Shown here: positions 262 to 33,966 of the stretch, one piece after another
How the letters are laid out: the number at the start of each line of letters is the position of its first letter
Position numbering within the stretch: the stretch's first letter is position 1
Assembly (NCBI GenBank): GCA_043802785.1
Contig: JAZDKR010000052.1
Coordinates: 1 to 33,966 of the forward strand
Length of the DNA stretch: 33,966 bases
Origin: Elusimicrobiota bacterium
GTDB lineage: Bacteria > Elusimicrobiota > UBA8919
Direction: 5' to 3'
The notes under the pieces: model-generated
The model's database searches: none
What the model was told of the DNA's origin: nothing
The model's input: the letters and a program-made list of their open reading frames with translations, nothing else
Position numbers and translations under genes: made by a program

Positions 262-2043
262 GTGATAGAAACATTTTGTAAAGAGGAAATAAAAAAGGAT
301 AAAAGTATAGCATATTTCTCGATGGAGATAGGTATTGATTCAAGAATTCCAACATACAGCGGTGGGCTTGGTGTTTTAGCCGGAGATACACTCAGATCCT
401 GTGCTGACCTGAAAGTGCCGATAGTTGGAATAACTCTGTTATATAAAAAAGGATATTTCTATCAGAAATTAGATGAACAAGGTAATCAAACAGAACTACC
501 CGCACAATGGACACCGTCGGATTTTTTAGAACCGTTGCCCGGAAAAATAAATGTAAAGATAGAAAATAGAGATGTCCTTGTTCGGGTGTGGCAGTACAAA
601 TTAAAATCCGTAGATGGGAATTATTTTGTTCCTATATTTCTTCTTGATACCGATGTTCCCGAAAACAGTGATTACGATAAGTCACTTACAGATTATCTTT
701 ATGGCGGAGATGAAAAATATCGGTTTGCACAAGAAATTATTTTGGGAATCGGTGGTGTACGGATGCTTCGTGAACTTGGGTATACTGACATAAAAAAATA
801 TCATATGAACGAAGGGCATTCAAGTTTATTGGTTTTGGAATTAGCAAGACCAGGTAGGTTCGCCTGCGGCGAAGAACTTAAAAAACAAGAAGAACCTTCG
901 TCGGTGCGCGATTTATGCGTTTTTACCACACATACACCTGTTCCGGCAGGTCATGACAAATTTTCATATGATTTAGTGAAAAATGTTCTGGGTGATTTTG
1001 TTTCGCTTGATACTCTTAAAATGCTTGCCGGTGAAAAAAATCTCAATATGACTTTGCTCGCACTAAATTCAGCAGGGTACATAAATGGTGTTGCAAAAAA
1101 ACACGGTGAAGTTTCTCGTGAAATGTTTCCGGGGTACCCGATTGATTCTATAACTAATGGAGTGCATCCATATACTTGGGTATCCGAAAGTTTTAGAAAA
1201 TTATACAATAAATACATTTCTGGTTGGCCAAAAGATCCTTTCACATTAAGAAATATAATGAGTATTCCAAAGACGGAAATATGGGATGCACATATGGGAG
1301 CAAAGAGAAAACTGATTGACTATGTTAATGATGAATCAAATGTCGGAATGAACTATGAAACACTCACAATAGGATTTGCAAGGCGGCTGTCCACATATAA
1401 AAGAGCAGGTCTTTTGTTTTTTGATATTGAGCGGCTTGTTAATATTTCCAAAAAAGCAGGAAAAATACAGGTTGTATTGGCGGGGAAAGCGCATCCGAAA
1501 GATATACATGGGAAGGAGTTAATAAAGAAAATCTTTGAATGTATCCGTAGAGTTAAAAAGGACATAAAGATAGTATATCTCGAAAATTACGATGTAGAAC
1601 TTGGGAAGATAATTACTGCCGGAGTTGATCTTTGGCTGAATACACCTTCAAGACCCAAAGAGGCATCCGGTACTTCCGGAATGAAAGCATCTCTTAACGG
1701 AGTTCCAAATTTTAGTATATTAGATGGTTGGTGGATAGAAGGATGTATTGAGGGCGTTACAGGATGGTCTATTGGGGAAAAAACAATTGGCGCTGTTAGG
1801 AATAAATCACGAGAGACGGATGTTCCATCTATATGGGGAATTTCTGAAACGGTTGAAGAAAATTCTGACGAAAAAGACGCTCATGATTTATACAAAAAAT
1901 TGGAAAATGTAATTATTCCGATGTTCTACAAAGATAGAGAACAGTGGCTAAGTATTATGCAATATTGCATTGCATTTAACGCCTCTTTTTTTAATACAAA
2001 CAGAATGGTTCACGAGTATGTATTGAATGCGTATTTAACATAG
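262..2043 (+). CDS. glgP: alpha-glucan (glycogen/maltodextrin) phosphorylase family, GT35
   Basis: SGGLGVLAGD motif and the PLP-lysine motif EASGTSGMK. GTG start with AGGAGG 8 nt upstream. Confidence 0.85.
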   Translation: MIETFCKEEIKKDKSIAYFSMEIGIDSRIPTYSGGLGVLAGDTLRSCADLKVPIVGITLLYKKGYFYQKLDEQGNQTELPAQWTPSDFLEPLPGKINVKIENRDVLVRVWQYKLKSVDGNYFVPIFLLDTDVPENSDYDKSLTDYLYGGDEKYRFAQEIILGIGGVRMLRELGYTDIKKYHMNEGHSSLLVLELARPGRFACGEELKKQEEPSSVRDLCVFTTHTPVPAGHDKFSYDLVKNVLGDFVSLDTLKMLAGEKNLNMTLLALNSAGYINGVAKKHGEVSREMFPGYPIDSITNGVHPYTWVSESFRKLYNKYISGWPKDPFTLRNIMSIPKTEIWDAHMGAKRKLIDYVNDESNVGMNYETLTIGFARRLSTYKRAGLLFFDIERLVNISKKAGKIQVVLAGKAHPKDIHGKELIKKIFECIRRVKKDIKIVYLENYDVELGKIITAGVDLWLNTPSRPKEASGTSGMKASLNGVPNFSILDGWWIEGCIEGVTGWSIGEKTIGAVRNKSRETDVPSIWGISETVEENSDEKDAHDLYKKLENVIIPMFYKDREQWLSIMQYCIAFNASFFNTNRMVHEYVLNAYLT

Positions 2044-3164: not shown

Positions 3165-3923
3165 ATGATCAAAATAGTTGTCTGTGGTGCAGCAGGGAAA
3201 ATGGGAAAAATGATAACTTCAAGGATTCTCTCCGATGAGGAACTTGTTTTGTCAGGTGCAGTTGAATTCACCGGGCATCCGTCGGTAGGACAGCCGATAG
3301 ATAAAATAAATATTACGGATAATTTTTCAGAAGCGTTATCATTATCGGATGTGGCTGTTGATTTTACAATTATGGATGCGACATTACATCATTTGGATAT
3401 TGCCCAAAAGCAAAAAAAAGCGATTATTATAGGCACAACCGGCATTACAAAAGAAGGAATTGGAAAAATAAAAAGTGCTTCCAAAGAAATCCCGATTGTC
3501 CTTGCTCCAAATATGGCTGTCGGAGTGAATCTTTTATTCAAACTTGTTGAAGAAGTTGCGGCGGTTTTGACGAATTATGATGTTGAAATTATTGAGGCAC
3601 ATCACAACCAAAAAAAAGATGCTCCATCCGGAACAGCACTTAATCTTGCCGAGATTATCTCCGCTAAACTTGATTTGGAACCAATTTTTGGCAGGCACGG
3701 AAATGTCGGAGCGAGAAAAAAAGAAATAGGGATTCATGCTGTTCGCGCGGGCGATATCGTTGGTGAGCACACAGTAATTTTTGCCGGTAATGGAGAGCGG
3801 ATTGAACTTATTCACCGTGCCCATACCCGTGAAACATTTGCAGCTGGAGCGGTCAAAGCCGCAAAATGGATTTTCGGCAAAAAACATGGATTTTATACAA
3901 TGAGGGATGTGTTGGGGTTGTAG
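3165..3923 (+). CDS. dapB: 4-hydroxy-tetrahydrodipicolinate reductase
   Basis: GAAGKMG NAD(P)-binding motif and the EAHHNQKKDAPSGTA signature. RBS aggagggg present. Confidence 0.93.
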   Translation: MIKIVVCGAAGKMGKMITSRILSDEELVLSGAVEFTGHPSVGQPIDKINITDNFSEALSLSDVAVDFTIMDATLHHLDIAQKQKKAIIIGTTGITKEGIGKIKSASKEIPIVLAPNMAVGVNLLFKLVEEVAAVLTNYDVEIIEAHHNQKKDAPSGTALNLAEIISAKLDLEPIFGRHGNVGARKKEIGIHAVRAGDIVGEHTVIFAGNGERIELIHRAHTRETFAAGAVKAAKWIFGKKHGFYTMRDVLGL

Positions 3924-3932
3924 AGAATTGTC

Positions 3933-3954
3933 GTAGTTGCCAAGCTTGCTTGGC
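3933..3954 (+). repeat. REP-like element: GTAGTTGC box plus hairpin gccaagc/gcttggc
   Basis: A member of the recurrent GTAGTTGC-hairpin family, with a conserved 5' box and a variable but complementary stem. Confidence 0.5.
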
Positions 3955-4028: not shown

Positions 4029-4661
4029 ATGATATACAAATTTACTAAAAAACCATCAAAAATTATCTGCGTTGGATTAAATTATATTGACCATGCAAAA
4101 GAACTTGGTATGAATTCGCTACGGCGAACGGATGAGCCGATAATTTTTCTGAAGCCACCGTCGGCAATCATTTTCAATAATGAAAAAATAAAATATCCAA
4201 ACAGTTCAAAACAGGTTGATTACGAAGCAGAACTTGCAATTGTCATCGGAAAAAAATGCAAAAATGTTTCTGAAAAAGACGCAAAAAAATATATTCTCGG
4301 ATACACCTGTCTCAACGATGTGACAGCGCGGGATTTACAGAAAAAAGATGGCCAATGGACAAGAGCAAAATCGTTTGATACATTCTGTCCGCTTGGACCG
4401 CATATCATTTCAGGAATCGCAAATCCAAATAATCTAAAAATTGAACTTTACTTAAACGGCGAATTAAAACAGTCATCTAACACAAAAAATTTGATTTTTA
4501 AAGTTGAAAAACTTGTTTCATTTATCTCAAAAATTATGACACTTGAAAAATATGATGTCATAGCAACAGGCACACCCGTCGGCGTTGGACCTGTCCAAAT
4601 CGGCGATAAAATAGAAGTAAAAATAGAAAAAATCGGCACATTGACAAATTGGATTATTTAA
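4029..4661 (+). CDS. fumarylacetoacetate hydrolase (FAH) family protein
   Basis: Motifs ...YEAELAIVIG..., ...LNDVTARD... and ...GTPVGVG..., typical of the FAH / 2-keto-4-pentenoate hydratase fold. Confidence 0.8.
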   Translation: MIYKFTKKPSKIICVGLNYIDHAKELGMNSLRRTDEPIIFLKPPSAIIFNNEKIKYPNSSKQVDYEAELAIVIGKKCKNVSEKDAKKYILGYTCLNDVTARDLQKKDGQWTRAKSFDTFCPLGPHIISGIANPNNLKIELYLNGELKQSSNTKNLIFKVEKLVSFISKIMTLEKYDVIATGTPVGVGPVQIGDKIEVKIEKIGTLTNWII

Positions 4662-4665
4662 GTTT

Positions 4666-4702
4666 GTCATTGCGAGGTCGTCCCGCCACGGCGGGATCAG
4701 CC
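4666..4702 (+). mobile_element. partial MITE-like element (left TIR GTCATTGCGAGG plus hairpin cccgcc-acg-gcggg)
   Basis: Shares the TIR and internal hairpin with the full copies at 15282 and 27802. It sits right after a stop codon, so it may act as a terminator. Confidence 0.5.
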
Positions 4703-10887: not shown

Positions 10888-11066
10888 GCCCCGCCTTGGC
10901 GGGGTCATTGCGAGGGCAAAGCCCGAAGCAATCTCGGTTTTAATCCGCCTCTAGGCGGAGGATTGCCACGGTCGCCTGTGGCGAACCTTGCCTTTGGCGG
11001 GGCGAAGTCTGACGACTCGATCCGCAGCGAGTCGGGCTTTCATAATAAGAATAAACCCGAAGGGTT
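10888..11066 (+). mobile_element. composite MITE-like/REP-like repeat block (left TIR GTCATTGCGAGG at 10904, gaagcaatctc and gattgccacgg boxes, several perfect hairpins)
   Basis: Shares sequence boxes with the elements at 15282 and 27802. Hairpins include ccgcc-tcta-ggcgg, cgactcg...cgagtcg and aaccc-gaa-gggtt. Confidence 0.5.
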
Positions 11067-11902: not shown

Positions 11903-12009
11903 TCAAGTTAGTTCCGATTTATCAGGATGACTTTTTTGTCGTCATTCCCGAATGGTTCTATCGGGAATCCATATGTTTATGTTTTGTTTACTTATGGATT
12001 CCTCTCCGA

Positions 12010-12288
12010 ATGTTTTTGTCGGGGATAACTACATATGAATGGGATTCAAAAAATATATCCCATATTTTGCAACACCAAGTAAGACCAGATGAAGTTGAAG
12101 AAGCATGTTATAATAATCCAGTTGTTCTTAAAACAAGAGGGAATTGTTATTTAGTGCTTGGTAGAAGCAATACAGGGAAATACTTATCTATTGTGGTTGC
12201 ACCAAAAGAAGAAGGCAAAACACGAGTTATAACAGCCAGAAATATGGACCACAAGGAAAGAAAACTTTTCACAAGAAAAAGGAAATAA
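12010..12288 (+). CDS. brnT: BrnT-like toxin (DUF497)
   Basis: YEWDSKN...H N-terminal signature, about 90 aa, followed 12 nt later by a BrnA-like gene. Confidence 0.65.
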   Translation: MFLSGITTYEWDSKNISHILQHQVRPDEVEEACYNNPVVLKTRGNCYLVLGRSNTGKYLSIVVAPKEEGKTRVITARNMDHKERKLFTRKRK

Positions 12289-15262: not shown

Positions 15263-15281
15263 CCACAGATTACACAGATTT

Positions 15282-15368
15282 GTCATTGCGAGGAGTCCCG
15301 CTGCAAGCGGGACGACGAAGCAATCTCAAAGAATGGGATTGCCACGGGACTTCGTCCCTCGCAATGAC
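15282..15368 (+). mobile_element. complete MITE-like element, 87 bp, TIRs GTCATTGCGAGG / CCTCGCAATGAC
   Basis: Perfect terminal inverted repeats; an internal hairpin cccgct-gcaa-gcggg; cgaagcaatctc and gattgccacggg boxes shared with other copies. Confidence 0.7.
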
Positions 15369-17223: not shown

Positions 17224-17320
17224 CCGTCATTCCGTGCTTGACACGGAATCCATTCTTAGACGATAACACAACCGCTCCCTGCGTACTATCTGCAGGGACA
17301 AGTTTTGCAGAGGAATGACG
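17224..17320 (+). mobile_element. MITE-like element with TIRs CCGTCATTCC / GGAATGACG
   Basis: Same TIR type as 26717-26818. Internal hairpins ccgtgcttgacacgg and ccctgc...gcaggg. Confidence 0.5.
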
Positions 17321-19900: not shown

Positions 19901-19944
19901 CAATAATACAAAATGACTGGGTTGGTGACGGTCGTTTTTTTATT
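19901..19944 (+). repeat. left 44-bp direct repeat (caataatacaaaatgactgggttggtgacggtcgtttttttatt)
   Basis: 42 of 44 positions identical to 20725-20768. Each copy is preceded by a cRcaatgaca MITE end and ends in a T-run. Confidence 0.6.
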
Positions 19945-20039
19945 CGAAAAATACTTGACAAATTTTATAAAGTATGTTATCTTTATAGTAAAGAAGTAAA
20001 GAAGTAAAAAAGTAAGGAATTTGGAAAAGGAGGTTGTCC

Positions 20040-20327
20040 ATGCAAAAGATTATTATGGCTCATATGAGTTCTAAAGCGCAGGTCACTGTCCCTAAGGAAG
20101 CGAGACAGATTCTTGGAATAGGACAGTGTAACATTCCTATTGGCTTCATTGTTGAACCCGAAACGCATACCGTTAAACTTACCAGAGTTAATGTCACATC
20201 TGCAGATGAAGATTTCACAGAAGAAGAATATAAAAAACTTCGTAAACTCGCTAAAAAACCGGGTGGGAAAATTTTTACAACTGCCGCCGCAGTTATTAAA
20301 TATCATAAAAAACTCACTAAAAGTTAA
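20040..20327 (+). CDS. AbrB/MazE/SpoVT-type antitoxin
   Basis: ...SSKAQVTVPKEARQILGI... swapped-hairpin motif. RBS aaggagg present. Its TAA overlaps the next ATG, giving a TAATG junction. Confidence 0.55.
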   Translation: MQKIIMAHMSSKAQVTVPKEARQILGIGQCNIPIGFIVEPETHTVKLTRVNVTSADEDFTEEEYKKLRKLAKKPGGKIFTTAAAVIKYHKKLTKS

Positions 20328-20602
20328 TGAAATATTTATTTAGGCCCCGTTATATTCGCAGCATTAAAAAACTTGATAAAAGCCGAGCAGCAAATGTTCA
20401 GAAGACATTTGAATCGCTCGTTAGATTTTTCCAAACAGGTGAAAAACCATTTGGACTCGGGCTCAAGCAATTACGACGTGATATATGGGAAGTTCGTGCC
20501 GGATTACTTGACCGCATAATTTTTCGTCGCACAAAAAATACAGTTGAATTCATTATTGCAGGAACACATAATGAAATCAAAAGATACTTAAATTCTTTGT
20601 AA
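20327..20602 (+). CDS. RelE/ParE-superfamily toxin
   Basis: 91 aa with ...GLKQLRRDIWEVRAGLLDRIIFRR...FIIAGTHNEIKRYL, the RelE/ParE-like pattern. Translationally coupled to the antitoxin. Confidence 0.55.
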   Translation: MKYLFRPRYIRSIKKLDKSRAANVQKTFESLVRFFQTGEKPFGLGLKQLRRDIWEVRAGLLDRIIFRRTKNTVEFIIAGTHNEIKRYLNSL

Positions 20603-20654: not shown

Positions 20655-20708
20655 CCCGAGTAGGTTCGCCTGGGGCGAAGGGGACAAGTTTATCGGCTTC
20701 GCAATGAC
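20655..20708 (+). mobile_element. MITE remnant: GTAG-ttcgcc-tggg-gcgaa hairpin plus right TIR TTCGCAATGAC
   Basis: Same boxes as the other family members. Confidence 0.4.
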
Positions 20709-20724
20709 AGGCAAAGATAAATTA

Positions 20725-20768
20725 CAATAATACAAAATGGCTGGGTTGGTGACGGTCATTTTTTTATT
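20725..20768 (+). repeat. right 44-bp direct repeat
   Basis: Copy of 19901-19944. The pair brackets the toxin-antitoxin module. Confidence 0.6.
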
Positions 20769-20808: not shown

Positions 20809-21669
20809 ATGGATTTACAATTTTATCTAAAAAACAAAAAATTGGTCGTTGATGAAGCACTGAAAAAGTATTTTCTGAAAAATGCAGATGAACCGCTTAT
20901 TATAAATACTGCGATGCGATACAGTATTTTTGCCGGTGGGAAGCGGTTGCGTCCGATTTTGTGCCTTGCCGCTTGTGAAATTTGCGGCGGAGTTGAAAAA
21001 AATGTTCTTCCAACCGCCTGTGCGATTGAAATGGTTCACACATATTCGCTTATTCACGATGACTTGCCTGCGATGGATAATGACGATGAACGTCGGGGAA
21101 AACTGACATCTCATAAAAAATTTGGCGAAGCGATTGCTATACTTGCCGGCGACGGGCTTTTAACAAAAGCGTTTGAAATTATTCATCCGAAGGTTGTAAA
21201 AGAAATTGCCGTTGCTGCTGGAACGAAAGGAATGGTTGGCGGGCAAGTGGTGGATATAGAAAGTGAAAAGTTAAAAGTTAAAAGTCAAAAGTTAAAAAAT
21301 GAACTTGTGTATATTCATGAACATAAGACGGCAAAAATGATAGAGGTTTCACTTAAAGCAGGTGCTGTGTTGTCCGATGCTCCCTCGGCAAAAATAAAGG
21401 CGATTTCAAATTATGGCAGAAAAATCGGTCTTGCGTTTCAAATTACAGACGACATTCTGGATATTATCGGCAACAAAAAAAAACTTGGCAAAAAAGGGTC
21501 GGATTTGAAAAATAAAAAATTGACCTATCCGTCAATCTATGGTATAGAAAAATCAAAAGAAAAAGCGGAGGCATTAATTAAGAGTGCAAAAAACAACCTA
21601 AAAATTTTTGGCAAAAAAGCGGATGTGTTTAATGAATTAGCCGACTATATAATCCAGAGGGATTTTTGA
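20809..21669 (+). CDS. polyprenyl diphosphate synthase (FPP/GGPP synthase family)
   Basis: First Asp-rich motif LIHDDLPAMDNDDERRG and second motif FQITDDILD. Confidence 0.9.
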   Translation: MDLQFYLKNKKLVVDEALKKYFLKNADEPLIINTAMRYSIFAGGKRLRPILCLAACEICGGVEKNVLPTACAIEMVHTYSLIHDDLPAMDNDDERRGKLTSHKKFGEAIAILAGDGLLTKAFEIIHPKVVKEIAVAAGTKGMVGGQVVDIESEKLKVKSQKLKNELVYIHEHKTAKMIEVSLKAGAVLSDAPSAKIKAISNYGRKIGLAFQITDDILDIIGNKKKLGKKGSDLKNKKLTYPSIYGIEKSKEKAEALIKSAKNNLKIFGKKADVFNELADYIIQRDF

Positions 21670-21708
21670 AGGGAACGATTATCTAACTGGGTATACTAAC
21701 GGTATTAA

Positions 21709-21799
21709 GTAGTTGCCGACCTTGGTCGGCTAACAAATGGTTACTAGCGCTAATCAATCTCGGCGACTACAAGTCAAGAGCGCCCAACAAGTTGGGCGA
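21709..21799 (+). repeat. two REP-like hairpins (GTAGTTGC-gccgacc/ggtcggc at 21709-21730; cgcccaac/gttgggcg at 21782-21799)
   Basis: GTAG box plus perfect palindromes. Stems are related to the 3933 and 25944 copies, but the stem sequences differ. Confidence 0.5.
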
Positions 21800-21826
21800 C
21801 TGCTTGGCTGAAAATGGAGGCGAATT

Positions 21827-23539
21827 ATGGTAAAAAAAGTACCGTCGGATATTGAAATAGCGCAGGCAATTGAACTTAACCCGATAATTGATATTGCGGA
21901 AAAAATCGGTATCAAAAGTGATGAGTTGGAATTATACGGTAACTACAAAGCAAAAATAAAACTTGAAATTCTCCAACGGATAAAAAATAATCATCAAGCG
22001 AAATATATTGATGTAACTGCTATAACGCCTACACCACTCGGCGAGGGAAAAACTGTTACAACGATAGGGCTTTCACTCAGTCTATCAAAAATCGGAAAAA
22101 AAGTTATAACAACAATCAGACAGCCGTCGTTAGGTCCCGTGTTCGGAATAAAAGGCGGTGCTGCTGGTGGAGGTTATTCTCAGGTTTTACCGATGGAAGA
22201 TTTTAATCTGCATCTTACCGGTGACGTTCACGCTGTTTCAATTGCACATAACTTGTGTGCTGCATTCGTGGACAATTCTCTTCACAAAGGAAATAAACTC
22301 AATATGGATATGAACAACATATTGTGGCGAAGGGTTGTTGATGTTTCGGACAGAGCGTTAAGGAATATAAAAATAGGGCTTGGAACAAAAGAAGATGGTA
22401 TCCCCCGTGACTCAGGGTTTGATATATCTGTTGCATCCGAAGTTATGGCGATACTTGCGCTAACAACTTCGCTGAAGGATTTAAGAGAACGATTGGGAAG
22501 AATTGTTGTTGCATTTACTCCTGACGGTAACCCAGTCACTACTGAGGATTTGCAGGTTGCTGGCTCTATGGCTGTATTGTTAAGGGATGCTATTAAGCCG
22601 AATCTTCTGCAGACGACAGAACACACGGCTTGTTTCGTTCACGCTGGTCCTTTTGCGAACATCGCACATGGCAACAATTCAATTCTTGCCGACCTTATGG
22701 CAGTAAAACTTACCGATTATGTCGTTACGGAAAGTGGATTCGGTGCCGACTGCGGAATGGAAAAGTTTATGAATATAAAATGCAGATATTCAGGACTTAT
22801 TCCTAACTGCGTCGTTATGGTTTGCTCCATCCGTGCTCTGAAAATGCATTCGGGAAAATTTAATGTTGTTGCCGGCAGACCATTGGAAGAAGGACTGATT
22901 AAAGAAAACCTGACTGCTATTGCCGAAGGAATTTGTAATCTTGAAAAGCATATTGAAAACGCAAAGATGTTCGGTGTGCCAGTTGTGGTTGCAATAAATA
23001 AATTCTCAACAGATACGGATAAAGAGATAGAATTTGTCAGATTGAAGTCATTAGAAGCCGGCGCCGATGATGTTGCACTCTCTACGGTTTGGGAGAATGG
23101 TGGTGACGGTGGCAGGGAATTAGCAGAAGCAGTTGTAAACGCCTGCGAGAAAAAATCTTCAAACGAATTCCGGTTTTTATATCCACTTGATATGCCGATA
23201 AAAGAAAAAATTCAAACAATTGCAACAAAAATATACGGAGCGAAGGATGTTCAGTACACACCGCAGGCAGAAGAAAAAATTAAACTTTACACCAAACTTG
23301 GCTGGGCTCAACTTCCGCTCTGTATGGCGAAGACGCATCTTTCATTATCACACGAGCCGACATTAAAAGGAAGACCAACAGGATTCACATTACCCGTTAA
23401 AGATATAAGGGCATCTATTGGTGCGGGTTTTTTGTATCCTTTGTGCGGCGAGATGAGAACAATGCCAGGGCTTCCATCTGTTCCCGCAGGCACAAAAGTT
23501 GATATTGATAAAGACGGAAAAGTCGTAGGATTGTTTTAA
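21827..23539 (+). CDS. fhs: formate--tetrahydrofolate ligase
   Basis: PTPLGEGKTVTTIGL P-loop region and full-length match to the FTHFS family. RBS ggagg present. Confidence 0.95.
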   Translation: MVKKVPSDIEIAQAIELNPIIDIAEKIGIKSDELELYGNYKAKIKLEILQRIKNNHQAKYIDVTAITPTPLGEGKTVTTIGLSLSLSKIGKKVITTIRQPSLGPVFGIKGGAAGGGYSQVLPMEDFNLHLTGDVHAVSIAHNLCAAFVDNSLHKGNKLNMDMNNILWRRVVDVSDRALRNIKIGLGTKEDGIPRDSGFDISVASEVMAILALTTSLKDLRERLGRIVVAFTPDGNPVTTEDLQVAGSMAVLLRDAIKPNLLQTTEHTACFVHAGPFANIAHGNNSILADLMAVKLTDYVVTESGFGADCGMEKFMNIKCRYSGLIPNCVVMVCSIRALKMHSGKFNVVAGRPLEEGLIKENLTAIAEGICNLEKHIENAKMFGVPVVVAINKFSTDTDKEIEFVRLKSLEAGADDVALSTVWENGGDGGRELAEAVVNACEKKSSNEFRFLYPLDMPIKEKIQTIATKIYGAKDVQYTPQAEEKIKLYTKLGWAQLPLCMAKTHLSLSHEPTLKGRPTGFTLPVKDIRASIGAGFLYPLCGEMRTMPGLPSVPAGTKVDIDKDGKVVGLF

Positions 23540-23550
23540 GGACTGTAAAT

Positions 23551-23730
23551 TTGTAGTTGCTCAATTTATTGAGCGCCTTTAGTAGGTTTGTAGTTGCTCA
23601 ATTTATTGAGCGCCTTTAGTGGGTTTGTAGTTGCTCAATTTATTGAGCGCCTTTAGTGGGTTTGTAGTTGCTCAATTTATTGAGCGCCTTTAGTAGGTTT
23701 GTAGTTGCTCAATTTATTGAGCGCCTTTAT
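23551..23730 (+). repeat. tandem array of 5 x 37-bp REP-like units (ttgtagttgctcaatttattgagcgcctttagtRggt)
   Basis: Exact period of 37 bp. Each unit carries GTAGTTGC plus the hairpin gctcaa-ttta-ttgagc. No spacers, so it is not a CRISPR array. It ends 33 nt before the ATG at 23764. Confidence 0.8.
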
Positions 23731-23763
23731 GCCAGATAAATCGGGCAACCACTGTGACCTAAA

Positions 23764-25881
23764 ATGGATTGGACAAAATTTGAATTAAAACCAAAAGAAG
23801 AAATTATTGCTCTCCTGCAAGGGGTCAATAATATCTTTGTTATCAGTTGCAAAAAATGTTTTAAGGAACTTAATCCTTCGGATGACATTACCGGTTCTGA
23901 TGAATGTCCTGCGGTTTCCAAAATTGTTGAGGAGGCGAATAAAAAAATTGTTGGTTGCATTGATGTAGATTTTCTTTGCAATAAATTATTAACAGAAAAA
24001 CTTATCCCGAAAGATTTTCAATCGGCAGAAGTTATATGTGTTATTTCCTGTGGAATAGGTGTTCAAACCGTTGCAAATTTAATTAAAGATAAGCCGGTGT
24101 ATTGCCTGACAAATTCCGTATTTAAGACGGGACATAGCGGTGAGCACGGAATGGCTTTGGCTGAAGAAAGGTGCGGGGCCTGTGGGGATTGCGTATTAGA
24201 TATTACCGAGGGAATATGTCCTGTAACTAATTGTGCCAAGCAATTACGCAATGGTTCCTGCGGCGGCGCAAAAAATGGTAAATGCGAGGTAAAAAATTCA
24301 GATGGTAGCCAGCGTGACTGTGCTTGGGAAAAAATATACAAACGCTTGAATGCAGTAGTATCGGGGTCTCCTCGCTTGAATGCACGAGAAAAAACAATCG
24401 CGGGAGAACAATCCGTTGAAATTAAGGACCATTCCAAACCGGATTTTGATACAATAAATTCTTGTAGTATTGATATTCGCAATAAACGACAGCAGAGTTT
24501 TTATGGTGGTCTTTATCCAAAAGAGAATAAAAAACAAACTGAAAATAAACCAATTCAACCTTTTCCCGAACCCAAATTTCTAATTATTCCACTATCACAA
24601 CACATCGGCAAAATTTGTGAACCGCTCGTGAAAGTTGGCGATAGAGTAAAAGTTGGACAGAAAATCGGCGATGTATCATCCGAATTTTTGGGTGTACCTG
24701 TCCATTCCAGTGTGAGTGGAAAAGTCATCGAGATTGAACTTAGAAACCATCCGTTAAGTATTGAAAAAGTTCTGGCAATAACCATTGAGTCAGATGGTAA
24801 AAATGAAGTTCAAAAAAGCGAAACATTATGTATTGATGAAAATTGGCAACCCGAGCAGGCGATTAAAATGATTCGCGAGGCAGGAATTGTGGGATTAGGT
24901 GGCGCACAATTTCCTACTTACGCAAAACTGTGTCCACCGAAAAATAAACCGATAGATACTGTTATCCTTAACGGTGCTGAATGTGAACCATATTTGACTG
25001 CGGATTATCGTGTTATGCTGGAAAAGCCGGAAGAATTATTAGCAGGTTTGCGTGCGATAATGAAAATCTTAAATGTTGAAAATGGTGTTATTGCGATTGA
25101 AGATAATAAAGAAGACGCGATAGAAAGGTTAAATAATGTCATTGCGAGTCGCGAAGCAACGAAGCAATCTCAAACAAATAAAATCAAAGTTGTAGAACTC
25201 AAAACAAAATATCCGCAGGGTTCGGAACGGATGCTAATCAAAAAAATCTTAAATAGAGATGTCCCGCTTGGAGGATTGCCCTACGATGTCGGCGTAATAG
25301 TGAACAATGTAAGCACGGCGGTAGCGGTCTACGAAGCATTATATAAAGGCATATCTTTGATAAAGCGAGTAATTACCGTCACGGGCGATAACTGTGTCCG
25401 ACCTGGTAATTACGAGATAAAAATCGGTACACTATTTCAGGATATCATGGAGTATTGTTTTTCTCTTCCCTACCCCTTCACCTGCGGTGAACCTACTTGG
25501 CTATCCCCTACCCCCTATTCACTAAAGATGGGCGGTCCGATGATGGGTATATTACAGAATAATCTTGATGTTCCGGTAATAAAAGGAACTACGGGAATTT
25601 TGGTGTCTGCCAAACCAGACATACAATCTGATTTATCAAGAAGTTGTATCAAATGCGGTCGTTGTGTAGATGCCTGTCCGATGGAATTGCTCCCTTTATA
25701 CTATGCTTTTTATGTTGACCAAGTAGGTTCGCCAGTGGCGAAAAAACAGCAGTGGCAAGAAACAAAACAGTTAGGAGTTATGAACTGTATAGAGTGCGGA
25801 TGTTGTGATGATGTATGCCCCGCAAAAAGGTCAATAGTTGGTGCTGTTAAAATAGCAAAAAAGGCAGTTCATAGTTCATAG
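23764..25881 (+). CDS. RnfC-like NADH-binding FeS subunit of methylene-THF reductase with an N-terminal MetV-like (MTHFR C-terminal-type) zinc-ribbon domain
   Basis: N-terminal ...CGACGDC...CP...CGGAKNGKCEV..., paralogous to the metV gene at 26025. Central RnfC/NuoF-like core (GLGGAQFPT..., LNGAECEPY...). Two C-terminal CxxCxxCxxxCP ferredoxin motifs. Confidence 0.8.
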   Translation: MDWTKFELKPKEEIIALLQGVNNIFVISCKKCFKELNPSDDITGSDECPAVSKIVEEANKKIVGCIDVDFLCNKLLTEKLIPKDFQSAEVICVISCGIGVQTVANLIKDKPVYCLTNSVFKTGHSGEHGMALAEERCGACGDCVLDITEGICPVTNCAKQLRNGSCGGAKNGKCEVKNSDGSQRDCAWEKIYKRLNAVVSGSPRLNAREKTIAGEQSVEIKDHSKPDFDTINSCSIDIRNKRQQSFYGGLYPKENKKQTENKPIQPFPEPKFLIIPLSQHIGKICEPLVKVGDRVKVGQKIGDVSSEFLGVPVHSSVSGKVIEIELRNHPLSIEKVLAITIESDGKNEVQKSETLCIDENWQPEQAIKMIREAGIVGLGGAQFPTYAKLCPPKNKPIDTVILNGAECEPYLTADYRVMLEKPEELLAGLRAIMKILNVENGVIAIEDNKEDAIERLNNVIASREATKQSQTNKIKVVELKTKYPQGSERMLIKKILNRDVPLGGLPYDVGVIVNNVSTAVAVYEALYKGISLIKRVITVTGDNCVRPGNYEIKIGTLFQDIMEYCFSLPYPFTCGEPTWLSPTPYSLKMGGPMMGILQNNLDVPVIKGTTGILVSAKPDIQSDLSRSCIKCGRCVDACPMELLPLYYAFYVDQVGSPVAKKQQWQETKQLGVMNCIECGCCDDVCPAKRSIVGAVKIAKKAVHSS

Positions 25882-25943
25882 TTCATAGTTCGTAGTAGAG
25901 GCGGATGACGGATAACGAATAACAGATTTTGATTTTATTAGTT

Positions 25944-25965
25944 GTAGTTGCCCAATTTATTGGGC
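25944..25965 (+). repeat. REP-like unit with compensatory stem (GTAGTTGC-gcccaa-ttta-ttgggc)
   Basis: Single copy of the 23551-type unit. The stem differs at two positions on each arm, and pairing is preserved. Confidence 0.55.
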
Positions 25966-26024
25966 GCCGTTGACCTACGCAATACGCAATACGTTTTTAT
26001 CTGTTTTGTATCGCCCTTAAAAAA

Positions 26025-26663
26025 ATGCTAACAATCAAACTTAAACCCGTAGATAATTTGCGGTCATATCTAACAGAAAAAAATCTGATAATACGATGCC
26101 TCGGTTGCCGCGAAGTTCTATTCCCGGAAGAACAGGTGAACAATTTTAAGGAGGGACTGTCCCCGCAGGGGACTGTCCCATATGATATTGACGATATTGC
26201 AACCGATTATTTGTGTAATCCTGACTATACCCAGACGCGGCTGAAATTGTGGCAGAAGAAAATTGACGAAGCGACAAGTATAATAATTTTTTCATGCGGG
26301 GTTGGTGTGCAAGTTGTATCTTCGTTGATGAATAGACATACTTATGCCGGGGCTGATACTGTTCATCTCAATGGTTTTCAGGGTTTAACACCTACAGAAT
26401 ACGATTGTGATCTTTGCGGTGATTGCCTTTTAAATTATACCGGTGGACTTTGTCCTATAACTGCCTGCTCAAAATCGTTGCTTAATGGTTGTTGCGGCGG
26501 TGCCAAAAACGGTAAGTGCGAAGTTAATAAGGAACTTGATTGCGGTTGGGAGAAAATTTATAATCGGCTAAAGGAATCCAGTAAAGTTGTCCGAACTGAC
26601 TCCCTTGGAGAAACAACTTCAACGACTATAAAACTGCGAGATTATTCAAAAACAATACCGTAA
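26025..26663 (+). CDS. metV: MetV-like zinc-ribbon subunit of methylene-THF reductase
   Basis: ...CDLCGDC...CP...CGGAKNGKCEV... core, sitting directly upstream of metF. Confidence 0.7.
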   Translation: MLTIKLKPVDNLRSYLTEKNLIIRCLGCREVLFPEEQVNNFKEGLSPQGTVPYDIDDIATDYLCNPDYTQTRLKLWQKKIDEATSIIIFSCGVGVQVVSSLMNRHTYAGADTVHLNGFQGLTPTEYDCDLCGDCLLNYTGGLCPITACSKSLLNGCCGGAKNGKCEVNKELDCGWEKIYNRLKESSKVVRTDSLGETTSTTIKLRDYSKTIP

Positions 26664-26716
26664 AACAGCAGTAAAGTAGTTGGCAGTGGTGTGGTTGGCA
26701 GTGGGCAGGAACATGC

Positions 26717-26818
26717 CGTCATTCCTGCGAAGGCAGGAATCCAGTGTCGTTTTCTTTTCTGGATTCCCGATTTGGCCTGTCCCCGAAAGTAGTAGTCGGG
26801 GAGCACTCGGGAATGACG
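26717..26818 (+). mobile_element. MITE-like element with TIRs CGTCATTCC / GGAATGACG
   Basis: Same type as 17224. Carries the internal hairpins ggaatccag...ctggattcc and ccccgaaagtagtagtcgggg. Confidence 0.5.
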
Positions 26819-26912
26819 ACATAAGGGCGGTTAGCCAACGAACGTCCCCCAATCGCTAACCACAAACGAAACCTCTTTTGGAAAAAGAGGAATATTAACG
26901 ACGGAGAAAAAC

Positions 26913-27791
26913 ATGAAACTTACGGAACTGTTTGCTAATGGAAAATTTGTTATTACTTCGGAAATTGGTCCACCGAAAGGTTGGCAGATTGAGAAGTGTC
27001 TGAATGAAGCGGAACATCTCAAAGATAAAGTGGATGCTATAAATGTTACTGATAACCAATCTTCAGTAATGCGGTTTGGTTCACTTGCAACCTGTCATTT
27101 TTTGAAAGACAGGAATATTGAGCCGGTATTTCAAGTTGTCTGCCGCGACAGAAACAGGATTGCTCTCCAATCGGATATTTTAAGTGCCGCTGCTTTTGGT
27201 ATTGAAAACTTGCTTTTGTTGACCGGTGACCACACAACACTCGGCGACCATCCACAGGCGAGGCCGGTGTTTGATTTGGACTCCGTTTCCTTAATTTATG
27301 CAGTAAAAAAGTTGGAGGAAGGTGTTGACCTCGCAGGCAATAAACTTGAAGGCGAGCCACCGAAATTTGCAATTGGTGCGGTTGTGTCACCGTGCTCTGA
27401 CCCTGTGGAGCCGCAACTTATAAAAATGGAGAAAAAAATAAAAGCAGGCGCGGAATTTTTTCAGACACAGGCAATTTACGAAGTTGAAAAATTTGTAAAG
27501 TTTATGGAAAAGGCGAAACAATTCGGAGCACCTGTTATGGCAGGGATAGTAATCTTAAAATCCGTCGGTATGGCAAAATATATGAATGAAAATGTTGCCG
27601 GCGTTTATGTTCCGGACAATTTAATTGAAGAGTTGAAAAAAGATAAAGAGAAGACAAAATCTGGGCAAACAGGAATAGAAATTGCTACACGACTTATAAA
27701 AGAACTCAAGCCGTACTGTCAGGGTGTTCACATAATGCCGCTCGGCTGGGACGATAAAGTTCCAAAAATTCTTGAACTCGCAGGGTTGTAA
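26913..27791 (+). CDS. metF: 5,10-methylenetetrahydrofolate reductase
   Basis: ...FVITSEIGPPKG..., ...VDAINVTDN... and ...LLLTGD... hallmark motifs. RBS ggag present. Confidence 0.9.
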   Translation: MKLTELFANGKFVITSEIGPPKGWQIEKCLNEAEHLKDKVDAINVTDNQSSVMRFGSLATCHFLKDRNIEPVFQVVCRDRNRIALQSDILSAAAFGIENLLLLTGDHTTLGDHPQARPVFDLDSVSLIYAVKKLEEGVDLAGNKLEGEPPKFAIGAVVSPCSDPVEPQLIKMEKKIKAGAEFFQTQAIYEVEKFVKFMEKAKQFGAPVMAGIVILKSVGMAKYMNENVAGVYVPDNLIEELKKDKEKTKSGQTGIEIATRLIKELKPYCQGVHIMPLGWDDKVPKILELAGL

Positions 27792-27801
27792 CAATATGCC
27801 T

Positions 27802-27905
27802 GTCATTGCGAGCCCCGTCCCGCCTTGGCGGGATCGGGGCGAAGCAATCTCAAAATTACCGATGGAAAAGAGAGATTGCCACCCCGCCATTGAATCAGTG
27901 GCGGG
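27802..27905 (+). mobile_element. complete MITE-like element, 104 bp, TIRs GTCATTGCGAG / TCGCAATGAC
   Basis: Perfect TIRs. Carries the hairpin cccgcc-ttg-gcggg and the cgaagcaatctc and gagattgccac boxes. Confidence 0.7.
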
Positions 27906-28768: not shown

Positions 28769-28796
28769 AAGTATCAGAAACTGAGTAGATGGTAGT

Positions 28797-28845
28797 GAAC
28801 GGTCTTTAGACCGTTCAAATAATATGCAGGGTCTGAAGACCCTGC
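28797..28845 (+). repeat. two perfect twin hairpins (gaacGGTC-ttta-GACCgttc; gcagGGTC-tgaa-GACCctgc) preceded by a GTAG-atg-GTAG box
   Basis: Read directly from the sequence. Each stem is 8 bp, and they lie in the mlaE-mlaF spacer. Confidence 0.55.
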
Positions 28846-28864
28846 CCTACCGAGATACCGACTT

Positions 28865-30313: not shown

Positions 30314-30444
30314 AAGAGGCAGGTAGAAAGGTAGGGCAACCCTTTAGGGTTGCTTTTGTAGTGCGACGATTTATCGTCGCTTTTGGCGAGGATAAGGACT
30401 TATACTACTTTTTCCGTCTCCCGTTTACTGTTTCCCGTGACTAA

Positions 30445-32333: not shown

Positions 32334-32351
32334 TACAAATGCATTATGTAA

Positions 32352-32450: not shown

Positions 32451-32600
32451 TGGTGTCACCCTGAATCCGCCGAGGCGGATGAAGGGTCTGCTTGTTCGTC
32501 GGAAGACTGGATTCTGCGTCCCGCTATGGTGGAACGCAGCAATCTCAGTTTTATTTCAATGTTGTGATTGCCACGGCGATTTTATCGCCTCGCAATGACC
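32451..32600 (+). mobile_element. MITE-like element (right half intact: cagcaatctca, gattgccacgg, TIR CCTCGCAATGAC) inside the 5' leader
   Basis: Same boxes as the other family members. The left part has diverged but keeps the hairpin accct-tga-atccgcc-gag-ggcggat-gaa-gggt. Confidence 0.5.
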
Positions 32601-32622: not shown

Positions 32623-33966
32623 ATGAAAAGAATTTTGATTTTTGTCGGATTATTGTTGATTTTGGGTAAAGTACCGGTACAAAGTAGTGAAGAGGTGAGA
32701 GATGGACAGTTGCTAAATAAAAGCACGGAACAAATAGTTTTAGAGGGCAGAGAGCAAGGCAGAGAGCAAGGCAGGGAGCAAGGCAGAGAGCAAGGCAGGG
32801 GCAATGACCAAAAAGAAACAACAATAACAACATCATCAACAACAAAAAAAACATATCTATTTGATGACGAGGATAGGAGAAGGTATTATGAAAATGAGCA
32901 AAAAAGATTTTTAGAACAAGAAGAAAGGAAACGGAAAAAACCACCATATGAAAAAAGTTCATGGGAGTTGATTGATGATGCGTACAAAGAAGGTAAGATT
33001 GATATTGACGCTGACTACATTTATAAGCGTTATGTTAAAGAATATCCTGAACTTTTACCACCAGAATATAAGGCAAAACGGGCTATCCCTTGGCAAGGCG
33101 GTACAAGTACAAACATGCTTATCCGACGAGAACTCATAGACAATTGGAATAAATTTCGTCCAGAAACAAAAAAGAGAATTAGGGAATTGGAAGTTAGATC
33201 TATGGTAAAAAGGGACACAAGTATTAGGCAAGAAATAAAAATCACAAAACCAAAAGATAATGAGATAGTTCATTCTCCTGCAATAGTAGTTGAAGGAGTA
33301 ACAGAGATACCCGAAGTATGGAATATTACTTCTCTTTGGGTAAGCATAAGTAACAATGTTATAGATAAAAAACAAGATAAAAAACAGGAAATAAAGTTAT
33401 CACAACCAGAATACATAGTTGGTGAAGAAACATTTGAAGATACAAAAGAAGGAAGGGTTAGAAAGCAGAGAGATATTGAATGGAAAGAAAAATATAAAGA
33501 TAAACCTGGATTTGCTGAACTATCAGATCCTCCCGGTCAGAATGTGTATCGGTTTAGTGAGATGGTGGTATTACCGTCGACGGGTATATGGAACATACAG
33601 ATAGGTGTGAGTAATGAGAGCGGTAATTCCGTCGGCGATGGTGCAACCGTGATATACCCGCCAAGCGATAAGGCGGATACCACGCCGCCCGTGATACAGA
33701 TAGAAGGTATAGAAAACGGACAGCGATTTAGCAAGAAAGAGTTTTATGCGACGGTAAAAACATCTGATGAACCATCAGCATTGGTCAGGTATTATATGAA
33801 TGATGTGACCGCTGGACGAGGTTGGGGGGGGGGCACGTTAAAAAATTATGATTGTTATAGTACTCATTATCTTACAAAGGTCGGCAAAAATATATTCAAG
33901 ATAGCAGTAACCGATTGCTACGGCAACCGAGCGGAGAAAGAGGTAAAATTGTATTACGAACCAGAG
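32623..33966 (+). CDS. secreted repeat-containing protein, 5' partial (runs off the window)
   Basis: AGGAGG 10 nt upstream; signal peptide MKRILIFVGLLLILG; (GREQ)4 repeat; Thr-rich linker; 448 codons with no stop. Confidence 0.6.
   Translation, partial: MKRILIFVGLLLILGKVPVQSSEEVRDGQLLNKSTEQIVLEGREQGREQGREQGREQGRGNDQKETTITTSSTTKKTYLFDDEDRRRYYENEQKRFLEQEERKRKKPPYEKSSWELIDDAYKEGKIDIDADYIYKRYVKEYPELLPPEYKAKRAIPWQGGTSTNMLIRRELIDNWNKFRPETKKRIRELEVRSMVKRDTSIRQEIKITKPKDNEIVHSPAIVVEGVTEIPEVWNITSLWVSISNNVIDKKQDKKQEIKLSQPEYIVGEETFEDTKEGRVRKQRDIEWKEKYKDKPGFAELSDPPGQNVYRFSEMVVLPSTGIWNIQIGVSNESGNSVGDGATVIYPPSDKADTTPPVIQIEGIENGQRFSKKEFYATVKTSDEPSALVRYYMNDVTAGRGWGGGTLKNYDCYSTHYLTKVGKNIFKIAVTDCYGNRAEKEVKLYYEPE
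32747..32806 (+). repeat. 12-bp tandem repeat (ggcagRgagcaa x 4-5) encoding (GREQ)n
   Basis: Perfect periodicity read from the sequence. Its mirror produces the spurious Cys/Leu/Pro-rich ORFs on the minus strand. Confidence 0.8.
33824..33833 (+). repeat. G10 homopolymer inside a coding sequence
   Basis: Ten consecutive G in a low-GC genome, in frame as W-G-G-G. Confidence 0.8.

Follow-up and report, generated by a model that had tools for sequence, protein, structure and literature searches.

What is the repeat array that fills the junction between fhs and the RnfC-like gene on an Elusimicrobiota contig, and how did it come to lie there? The contig, which we analysed over its entire 33,966 bp and refer to as the window, belongs to an Elusimicrobiota metagenome-assembled genome (MAG) held at NCBI, has a G+C content of 37.9% and carries nearly all of its genes on the plus strand. 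An initial annotation, made by a model from the sequence letters, had noticed the array upstream of the RnfC-like gene, which encodes a MetV-RnfC fusion. Our conclusion is that the array is very probably a locally amplified cluster of a repetitive extragenic palindromic (REP) element, tagged by GTAG and belonging to a family that is associated with REP-associated tyrosine transposases (RAYTs).

The spacer between the fhs stop codon (23537-23539) and the RnfC-like ATG (23764, a start backed by alignment to homologues beginning MDYTKF) is 224 nt long. That it holds five tandem units of 37 bp, as first described, is borne out: Tandem Repeats Finder reports a period of 37 with 4.9 copies, 98% matches and a score of 346 (23550-23729), and the 25-mer GTAGTTGCTCAATTTATTGAGCGCC is present in five exact copies, at 23553, 23590, 23627, 23664 and 23701 (Table 1). 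Allowing two mismatches reveals a single further copy, at 25944-25968, and the 25-mer has zero occurrences in 100 dinucleotide-preserving shuffles. Each unit is made up of an unpaired GTAG, a TT spacer, a perfect 6-bp stem whose GC foot is fixed and a loop of TTTA, which together read GTAG-TT-GCTCAA-TTTA-TTGAGC-GCC and are followed by a linker of 12 nt, TTTAGTRGGTTT; the formula originally given for the unit counted the GC at the foot of the stem twice. The linkers are identical except at the R position, which is A, G, G, A across the array.

Immediately 3' of the fifth unit lies GCCAGATAAATCGGGCAACCAC (23731-23752), which is the reverse complement of a degenerate unit, GTGGTTGCCCGATTTATCTGGC. 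The array is therefore composed of five direct units and one inverted unit, with the orientation string +++++-, and unit 5 and its inverted partner form an inverted doublet with GTAG outside (23701-23752). The partner is headed by GTGG, and all six plus-strand copies are headed by GTAG. The initial annotation had overlooked this inverted unit and placed the end of the array 33 nt before the start codon; the last repeat base is in fact 11 nt upstream of the ATG, and 203 of the 224 nt of the spacer are repeat DNA. The single copy downstream of the gene was likewise read correctly as a compensatory variant in which pairing is kept, but it has one substitution per arm rather than the two reported: T>C at 25952 and A>G at 25963, a single compensatory pair that changes U-A to C-G. 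A CRISPR array had already been dismissed, with good reason, given that the 12-nt linkers are constant save for one A/G position and that no cas family is found among the ten open reading frames (ORFs) next to the array.

An array of this kind in a MAG could in principle be real as a locus, yet owe its five copies to the collapse or expansion of short reads during assembly. The cores are identical, and the array with its inverted partner occupies 203 bp, which exceeds one short read. Nevertheless, the A, G, G, A linkers make long k-mers unique, such that the copy number can be resolved by them, and comparable arrays are present in independent assemblies, with six units in the locus that we designate L018 and three in each of L071, L093 and L147 (L numbers denote loci from other sequences). 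We thus consider an artefact of assembly distinctly unlikely.

The gene order fhs, metV-rnfC, metV, metF is kept in two related Elusimicrobiota MAGs, L149 and L150. In each of these only 6 nt lie between fhs and the next ATG (3494-3501), there is no REP at the locus, and AGGA occurs within the last fhs codons, 16 nt before the ATG of the next gene. The 3' end of fhs in the window is the same as in the relatives, AGGA included, and is then followed by the 224-nt spacer. Because the two related MAGs have a 6-nt junction devoid of REP, the comparison identifies the array as a derived insertion into the operon junction. The spacers 23540-23763, 25882-26024 and 26664-26912 of the window are 224, 143 and 249 nt long, as against 6, -7 and 21 nt in one relative; repeats are contained in the inflated spacers of this fhs, metV-rnfC, metV, metF cluster. 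Several other genes of the contig have a Shine-Dalgarno-like sequence, and none is seen in the 11 nt between the repeat and the RnfC-like ATG. Judged from these sequences, the ancestral translational coupling of fhs and the RnfC-like gene has most likely been broken by the array.

A scan for promoters and terminators across 21600-27000 found no site inside the spacer (23540-23763). With no room for a promoter, and none predicted, the array would be transcribed inside the operon message. The scan also bears on whether the hairpins are an intrinsic terminator that ends the fhs transcript, an idea which draws on the first hairpin beginning 20 nt past the fhs stop codon and on the ability of REPs to attenuate transcription (background cited in PMC8266576). 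We find this highly improbable: the scan detects nothing in 23540-23763, the stems have no T-run after them (GCGCCTTTAGT), and the RnfC-like gene has no promoter of its own and lies 6 nt from fhs in the relatives, so that full termination would silence three methyl-branch genes. The intrinsic terminator was also rejected as a class for the element, since its stems are followed by GCCTTTAG rather than by a T-run.

The array is not the only repeat to have entered this operon. The RnfC-like protein is 705 aa long, compared with about 653-690 aa in relatives, none of which exceeds 53% identity, and its ORF contains in-frame inserts at places where ten homologues have gaps. Two of these are 24-nt GTAG hairpins of a second family, GTAGGTTCRCCNNNGGYGAA, each encoding 8 aa (FTCGEPTW, for example), and a third is an element of the form GTCATTGCGAG...CGAAGCAATC (Table 1). 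The in-frame inserts show that small hairpin repeats have inserted in this lineage.

A scan of one genome per species with the pattern GTAGTTGCNNAATTTATTNNGCGCC found 15 loci in nine MAGs, which belong to Elusimicrobiota, Firestonebacteria, Desantisbacteria, Poribacteria, Planctomycetia and Dehalococcoidia. These loci have nothing in common with the window beyond the unit itself, and at seven of the 15 an inverted partner that ends in ...GGCAACTAC stands a few bases past the unit. A looser pattern detected at least 120 loci in metagenomes, as well as five viral contigs (IMG/VR; L136-L140). BLASTN of 23694-23752 matches doublets in L010 (88%) and L008 (92%). Units with exactly the core of the solitary REP downstream of the RnfC-like gene, GTAGTTGCCCAATTTATTGGGCGCC, are present in L001, L002, L004 and L015, and the REP that precedes the RAYT gene of L127 has this core as well. 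A full-text search of the literature for GTAGTTGC returned only unrelated, primer-type matches.

We then have a census of arrangements, comprising 287 units over 141 sequences, against which the array can be set. Of these units 109 stand alone, and the others form 71 doublets and 9 larger groups. Neighbouring units make up 98 pairs, in which GTAG is outside 62 times and inside 6 times, the remaining 30 being direct; a TTTA loop is seen in 177 units and a TTCA loop in 81. The architecture of the window recurs on L018, an independent metagenome contig, where six direct units with a 33-nt period are followed by an inverted partner. Direct triplets, with periods of 24-39 nt, are present in L071, L093 and L147. 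Linker length is constant inside an array and differs among arrays, which argues for local amplification of a unit together with its flank, rather than for repeated insertion. In one Poribacteria genome (L009, 1317-1930) the same REP core was seen inside a unit of ∼197 nt that is repeated four times in tandem; six exact core copies of this genome fall inside a conserved longer repeat.

The spread of the family allows the hairpin itself to be examined. Across 19 distinct units, 99% of cells are paired and four of the six pairs show compensatory changes (37 cells); none of 500 shuffles reached as high a value, and slid controls were 25-41% paired. Since this set of 19 had been filtered for pairing beforehand, a recount was made in which units were anchored on the tag, foot and loop only. 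By this count all four free inner pairs are Watson-Crick in 249 of 285 units, and the units with one deviation comprise 7 G-T, 10 A-C and 8 other mismatches. In all, there are at least 25 stem variants, with four covarying pairs. The hairpin, on which the initial annotation had argued for selection from the preserved pairing, is thus supported by covariation across many genomes.

The same data speak to the suggestion that the array is a reiterated operator, in which the 16-bp palindrome GCTCAATTTATTGAGC, present five times, would be bound as double-stranded DNA by a dimeric transcription factor controlling the downstream methyl-branch genes. A perfect 6-4-6 palindrome directly upstream of a gene is certainly what such a site might look like. 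However, a half-site that varies this freely, so long as pairing is kept, is not what an operator would be expected to show, and the same element stands beside unrelated genes in many phyla. Furthermore, neither the array nor the stretch that follows it has a promoter-like site, the adjacent genes include no regulator, and the relatives have only the 6-nt junction. We regard an operator as barely conceivable here.

A connection with RAYTs was sought by looking for HUH and YIxNNP motifs in six-frame translations of 140 loci. Small ORFs with both motifs were found in L109, L123 and L127, and also in L062, whose flanks differ; all four match Pfam Y1_Tnp. The ORFs of L109, L123 and L127 also match the NCBIfam model for REP-associated tyrosine transposases, NF047646, which L127 passes with 100.6 bits where the cutoff is 80; the best match of L127 among solved structures is Escherichia coli TnpA-REP, 4ER8 (4.7e-10). 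The RAYT genes of L109, L123 and L127 have GTAGTTGC-type units on both sides, with GTAG outward. We observed in passing that the L123 gene is interrupted by an inverted doublet of its own REP family (about 3170-3245), and that it scores 51.8 bits, below the NCBIfam cutoff. A protein search returned 1,370 RAYT homologues of about 137 aa, from which four more were chosen by organism name alone: L141, L143, L145 and L147, from Planctomycetes, Brocadiales, Zixibacteria and WOR-3, respectively. Each of the four likewise has units of this REP family on either side, and the stop codon of the RAYT is in every case supplied by the downstream GTAG. In total, therefore, every one of the seven RAYT loci of this clade that we examined is flanked on both sides by the REP family of the array. 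The initial annotation had listed a REP element or RAYT target cluster among its options, and the GTAG head, the perfect palindrome, the covariation and these seven loci bear that option out.

The search for a RAYT gene that the initial annotation had recommended gave none on the 34-kb contig itself, whether by regular expression, tblastn or a profile of six RAYTs. Several tblastn queries gave weak matches at 11929-12126, and this candidate was rejected, as the ORF in question (12010-12288) is a BrnT-type ribonuclease toxin (Pfam, 2.4e-08). The lack of a RAYT on the contig raises the possibility that the array is an orphan tandem repeat, immobile in a genome with no RAYT, grown by slippage of a palindromic 37-mer and functionless. 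The constant linker within the array fits slippage, and loss of REPtrons from some strains in which REPs remain is described in the GTAG REP survey (PMC3733652). On the other hand, RAYT genes elsewhere have REPs identical to the unit at their flanks, there is another copy at a distance of 2.2 kb, and other families of GTAG hairpin have inserted in frame into genes of this lineage; the RAYT search, moreover, covered 34 kb of the genome and no more. An orphan repeat is, in our view, unlikely.

We therefore return to a locally amplified, RAYT-associated REP as the explanation, and propose the following course of events. A doublet of REP and inverted REP (iREP) would have inserted at the fhs / metV-rnfC junction, 6 nt long in the relatives, and the left REP with 12 nt of flank would then have been amplified locally to five copies. 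Replication slippage, or unequal recombination from one unit to another, is the probable cause, given a linker that does not vary within this array and is different in arrays elsewhere. If characterised REPtrons are a guide, the RAYT (TnpA-REP, a small HUH/Y1 enzyme) would recognise the units as single-stranded DNA hairpins and mobilise them; in this genome it would be encoded elsewhere. Within the fhs-metVrnfC-metV-metF message the array could fold either as five small hairpins or as one long REP/iREP hairpin, and the likeliest consequences would be secondary ones: decay in the 3'-to-5' direction might be impeded, to the advantage of fhs over the genes that follow, and the translational coupling of the relatives would be lost. 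The transcribed hairpins may also reduce downstream translation, and the role of mRNA stabiliser or insulator put forward in the initial annotation stays an inference. Folding predictions give -7.8 kcal/mol for a single unit as RNA (z = -1.65) and -5.5 as DNA, and -17.5 kcal/mol (z = -4.0) for unit 5 with its inverted partner as RNA.

It is important to note that several results count against this account. No RAYT was detected within the 34 kb of the contig, direct arrays are a minority arrangement among REPs, and the figure of five units is an assembly count. In addition, a test for enrichment of G-U wobble pairs showed no excess of G-T over A-C (7 vs 10), and there is therefore no specific sign of selection at the RNA level; the single hairpin is weak as RNA, and hence a strong RNA barrier is not assured.

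How does the array compare with what has been described? REPs are defined as palindromes of 20-50 nt preceded by a conserved GTAG (PMC8266576; PMC3733652). The survey of GTAG REPs by Di Nocera, De Gregorio and Rocco (2013, PMC3733652) describes stems of 6-13 bp and subfamilies that differ by complementary stem changes; a predominance of doublets with GTAG outside, direct doublets being rare; clusters in which single units are reiterated in tandem with flanking DNA; a location near the 3' end of the upstream ORF, between co-directional genes; and instances of GTAG as a stop codon, of copies inside genes and of RAYT genes with REPs on either side. All of this is seen here as well, and the unit itself has a 25-nt core with a GTAG head, a 6-bp stem, a 4-nt loop and complementary stem changes. 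It also resembles the group 3 REPs of Corneloup et al. (2021, PMC8266576). These are short palindromes, likewise perfect, that depend chiefly on GTAG and the loop, whereas complementary changes are tolerated in the stem.

There are differences, too. The hosts listed in the survey are Proteobacteria, Cyanobacteria, Chloroflexi and the PVC group, and Elusimicrobia are not mentioned in it (PMC3733652); here, the hosts include Elusimicrobiota and other uncultivated phyla outside those listed. The present family, which may coincide with one of the 24 published ones, has a 4-nt TTTA/TTCA loop, a TT spacer, an invariant GC foot and a core that is nearly the same across phyla. With REPIN-RAYT systems (Bertels and Rainey 2011, PMC3116915; Bertels et al. 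2017, PMC5581495) it shares inverted doublets, what look like dispersed intergenic units and, at all seven loci in other organisms, a small Y1/HUH RAYT gene flanked by its own REPs; it departs from them in the left doublet arm, here amplified to five direct copies, and in the lack of a RAYT on the contig. The RAYTs of the family have the HUH motif, WQPxxxEHxIRN and YIxxNP in common with E. coli TnpA-REP (RayT, PDB 4ER8), yet they are about 137 aa long as opposed to 165 aa, are paired with short perfect rather than bulged palindromes, and their activity is predicted. The array is like the bacterial interspersed mosaic elements (BIMEs) of E. coli in being a cluster of REPs between genes of one operon for which effects on mRNA decay or attenuation have been proposed. 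BIMEs, however, alternate REP and iREP with defined linkers and bulged stems, whereas the array has five direct units and one inverted unit with perfect stems. The orientation +++++- led us to reject BIME as its class; of the REP/BIME-type element that the initial annotation envisaged, the REP part is retained and the canonical BIME, with alternating units, is not.

The array is thus very probably a member of the RAYT-associated GTAG REP class, which is already known and is here extended to Elusimicrobiota, a phylum from which it had not been described, and to neighbouring uncultivated phyla. So classified, the array is not a new regulatory RNA, nor is it a set of operators or a locus of CRISPR-like type. 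Beyond it, we put forward only tentatively that a single RAYT clade of ∼137 aa and the REP consensus GTAG-YY-GC-NNNR-TTYA-YNNN-GC may be common, almost unchanged, to at least eight phyla (Elusimicrobiota, Firestonebacteria, Desantisbacteria, Poribacteria, Planctomycetota, Chloroflexota, Zixibacteria and WOR-3) by transfer or co-conservation, and that the elements may be active in this lineage. One REP core and one small RAYT clade would then travel together across Elusimicrobiota and neighbouring uncultivated phyla, either by repeated transfer of whole REPtrons between phyla or under extreme co-conservation of enzyme and substrate. Both alternatives would contrast with the lineage-specific, vertically inherited REPIN populations of Pseudomonas and enterobacteria. 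The occurrence of RAYT groups over many bacterial classes, and their transfer over long time scales, has been discussed already (PMC5581495). If the elements are indeed active, they would be active enough to split a translationally coupled junction of a Wood-Ljungdahl operon and to insert in frame into its genes. The insertion also separates an RnfC-like methyl-branch gene from the ribosome-binding (AGGA) context seen in the relatives, and on this reading of the sequence could change enzyme stoichiometry. For the annotation of MAGs there is a practical warning, in that intergenic spacers grow longer through such elements, stop codons can come from them, conserved enzymes gain inserts of 8 aa, and small ORFs arise that are spurious.

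Table 1. Positions of the array, its neighbouring genes and related repeat elements in the window
Feature	Position	Strand	Remarks
fhs (formate-tetrahydrofolate ligase)	21827-23539	+	Pfam FTHFS, 2.2e-260
Tandem array, five direct REP units	23550-23729	+	37-nt period; linkers TTTAGTRGGTTT
25-nt cores	23553-23577, 23590-23614, 23627-23651, 23664-23688, 23701-23725	+	exact GTAGTTGCTCAATTTATTGAGCGCC
Degenerate inverted partner (iREP) GTGGTTGCCCGATTTATCTGGC	23731-23752	-	with unit 5, an HH / REPIN-like doublet
MetV-RnfC fusion (RnfC-like) gene	23764-25881	+	in-frame repeat inserts
GTCATTGCGAG...CGAAGCAATC element in RnfC-like ORF	25129-25172	+	in frame, about 7-10 aa
24-nt GTAG hairpin insert, GTAGGTTCRCCNNNGGYGAA family	25477-25500	-	in frame, 8 aa
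GTAG hairpin insert, GTAGGTTCRCCNNNGGYGAA family	25717-25745	+	in frame, 8 aa
Solitary REP GTAGTTGCCCAATTTATTGGGCGCC	25944-25968	+	63 nt past RnfC-like stop codon
GTAG hairpin GTAGTT GCCAAG cttg CTTGGC	3933-3954	+	10 nt past stop codon
GTAG hairpin GTAGTT GCCGAC cttg GTCGGC	21709-21730	+	40 nt past stop codon
GTAG-outside (HH) doublet	28792-28853	both	plus unit from 28792, minus unit from 28850
Direct (head-to-tail) GTAG doublet	30331-30380	+	different stems, TTTA loop, 27-nt period

The remainder of the contig is rich in related elements. A hairpin scan found many sites of the form GTAG, 0-2 nt, GC-rich stem and tetraloop, and GTAG ranks first of the 256 tetramers directly 5' of perfect GC-containing hairpins in the window. 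Eighteen of its 150 GTAGs precede such hairpins, 15 on the plus strand and 3 on the minus; counting the array once leaves 14 sites. The 34 kb hold two loci of the array's exact subfamily, and in other genomes the family is abundant. Seven plus-oriented intergenic sites lie 10-63 nt past stop codons (3933, 21709, 23553, 25944, 28792, 30331 and 32348), six of them headed by GTAG and the one at 32348 by GTAA. On the plus strand, where nearly all of the genes lie, the G-C skew is +0.14. Single-strand transposases of the IS200/IS605 family act on the lagging-strand template; the skew is compatible with the GTAG strand being on that template, although this is only suggestive.

Six copies of the second family, GTAGGTTCRCCNNNGGYGAA, were counted in the window, whereas a search of 140 other loci found no copy; on this sequence evidence it is lineage-specific, unlike the family of the array. 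A further copy of the GTAGGTTC family was seen at 854-873 (+), inside a phosphorylase-like ORF (262-2043). A third repeat family consists of GTCATTGCGAG, a variable GC-rich hairpin and CGAAGCAAT(C); it occurs in both orientations, mostly just past genes, at about 4654-4700, 10889-10915, 15270-15330, 20694-20720, 27795-27845 and 32575-32600. Another hairpin, GTCATTCCTGC-gaag-GCAGGAATCC, with the variant ATTCCGTG...CACGGAAT, is found at 26718-26742 and 17226-17252, and one of the same type is located on the unrelated metagenome contig L093 (6310-6335), beside GTAGTTGC REPs. Because the GTCATTCCTGC-type hairpin adjoins GTAGTTGC REPs there, several small repeat families may travel together.

Rfam at its gathering threshold and a tRNA scan gave no matches over the whole window. 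Short tandem runs of heptamers stand beside the solitary REP, at 25866-25896 (AGTTCAT, 4.4 copies, overlapping the RnfC-like stop codon), 25902-25927 (CGGATAA-like) and 25976-25993 (TACGCAA, 2.6 copies), and similar runs adjoin REPs of the same family in a Firestonebacteria MAG (L006, about 560-620) and on the metagenome contig L018 (about 300-345). Elsewhere in the window, a 44-nt direct repeat (19901-19944 and 20725-20768, 95% identical) lies on either side of a segment of 824 nt. The segment contains small ORFs, with a weak match to a ParE-like toxin among them (20327-20602), and may be a small cassette. Other tandem repeats are GGCAGAGAGCAA (4.4 copies, 32746-32804), AGTAAAGA (4.1 copies, 19987-20019) and AAAGTTA (5.4 copies, 21260-21297), the last of which lies inside a polyprenyl synthetase ORF.

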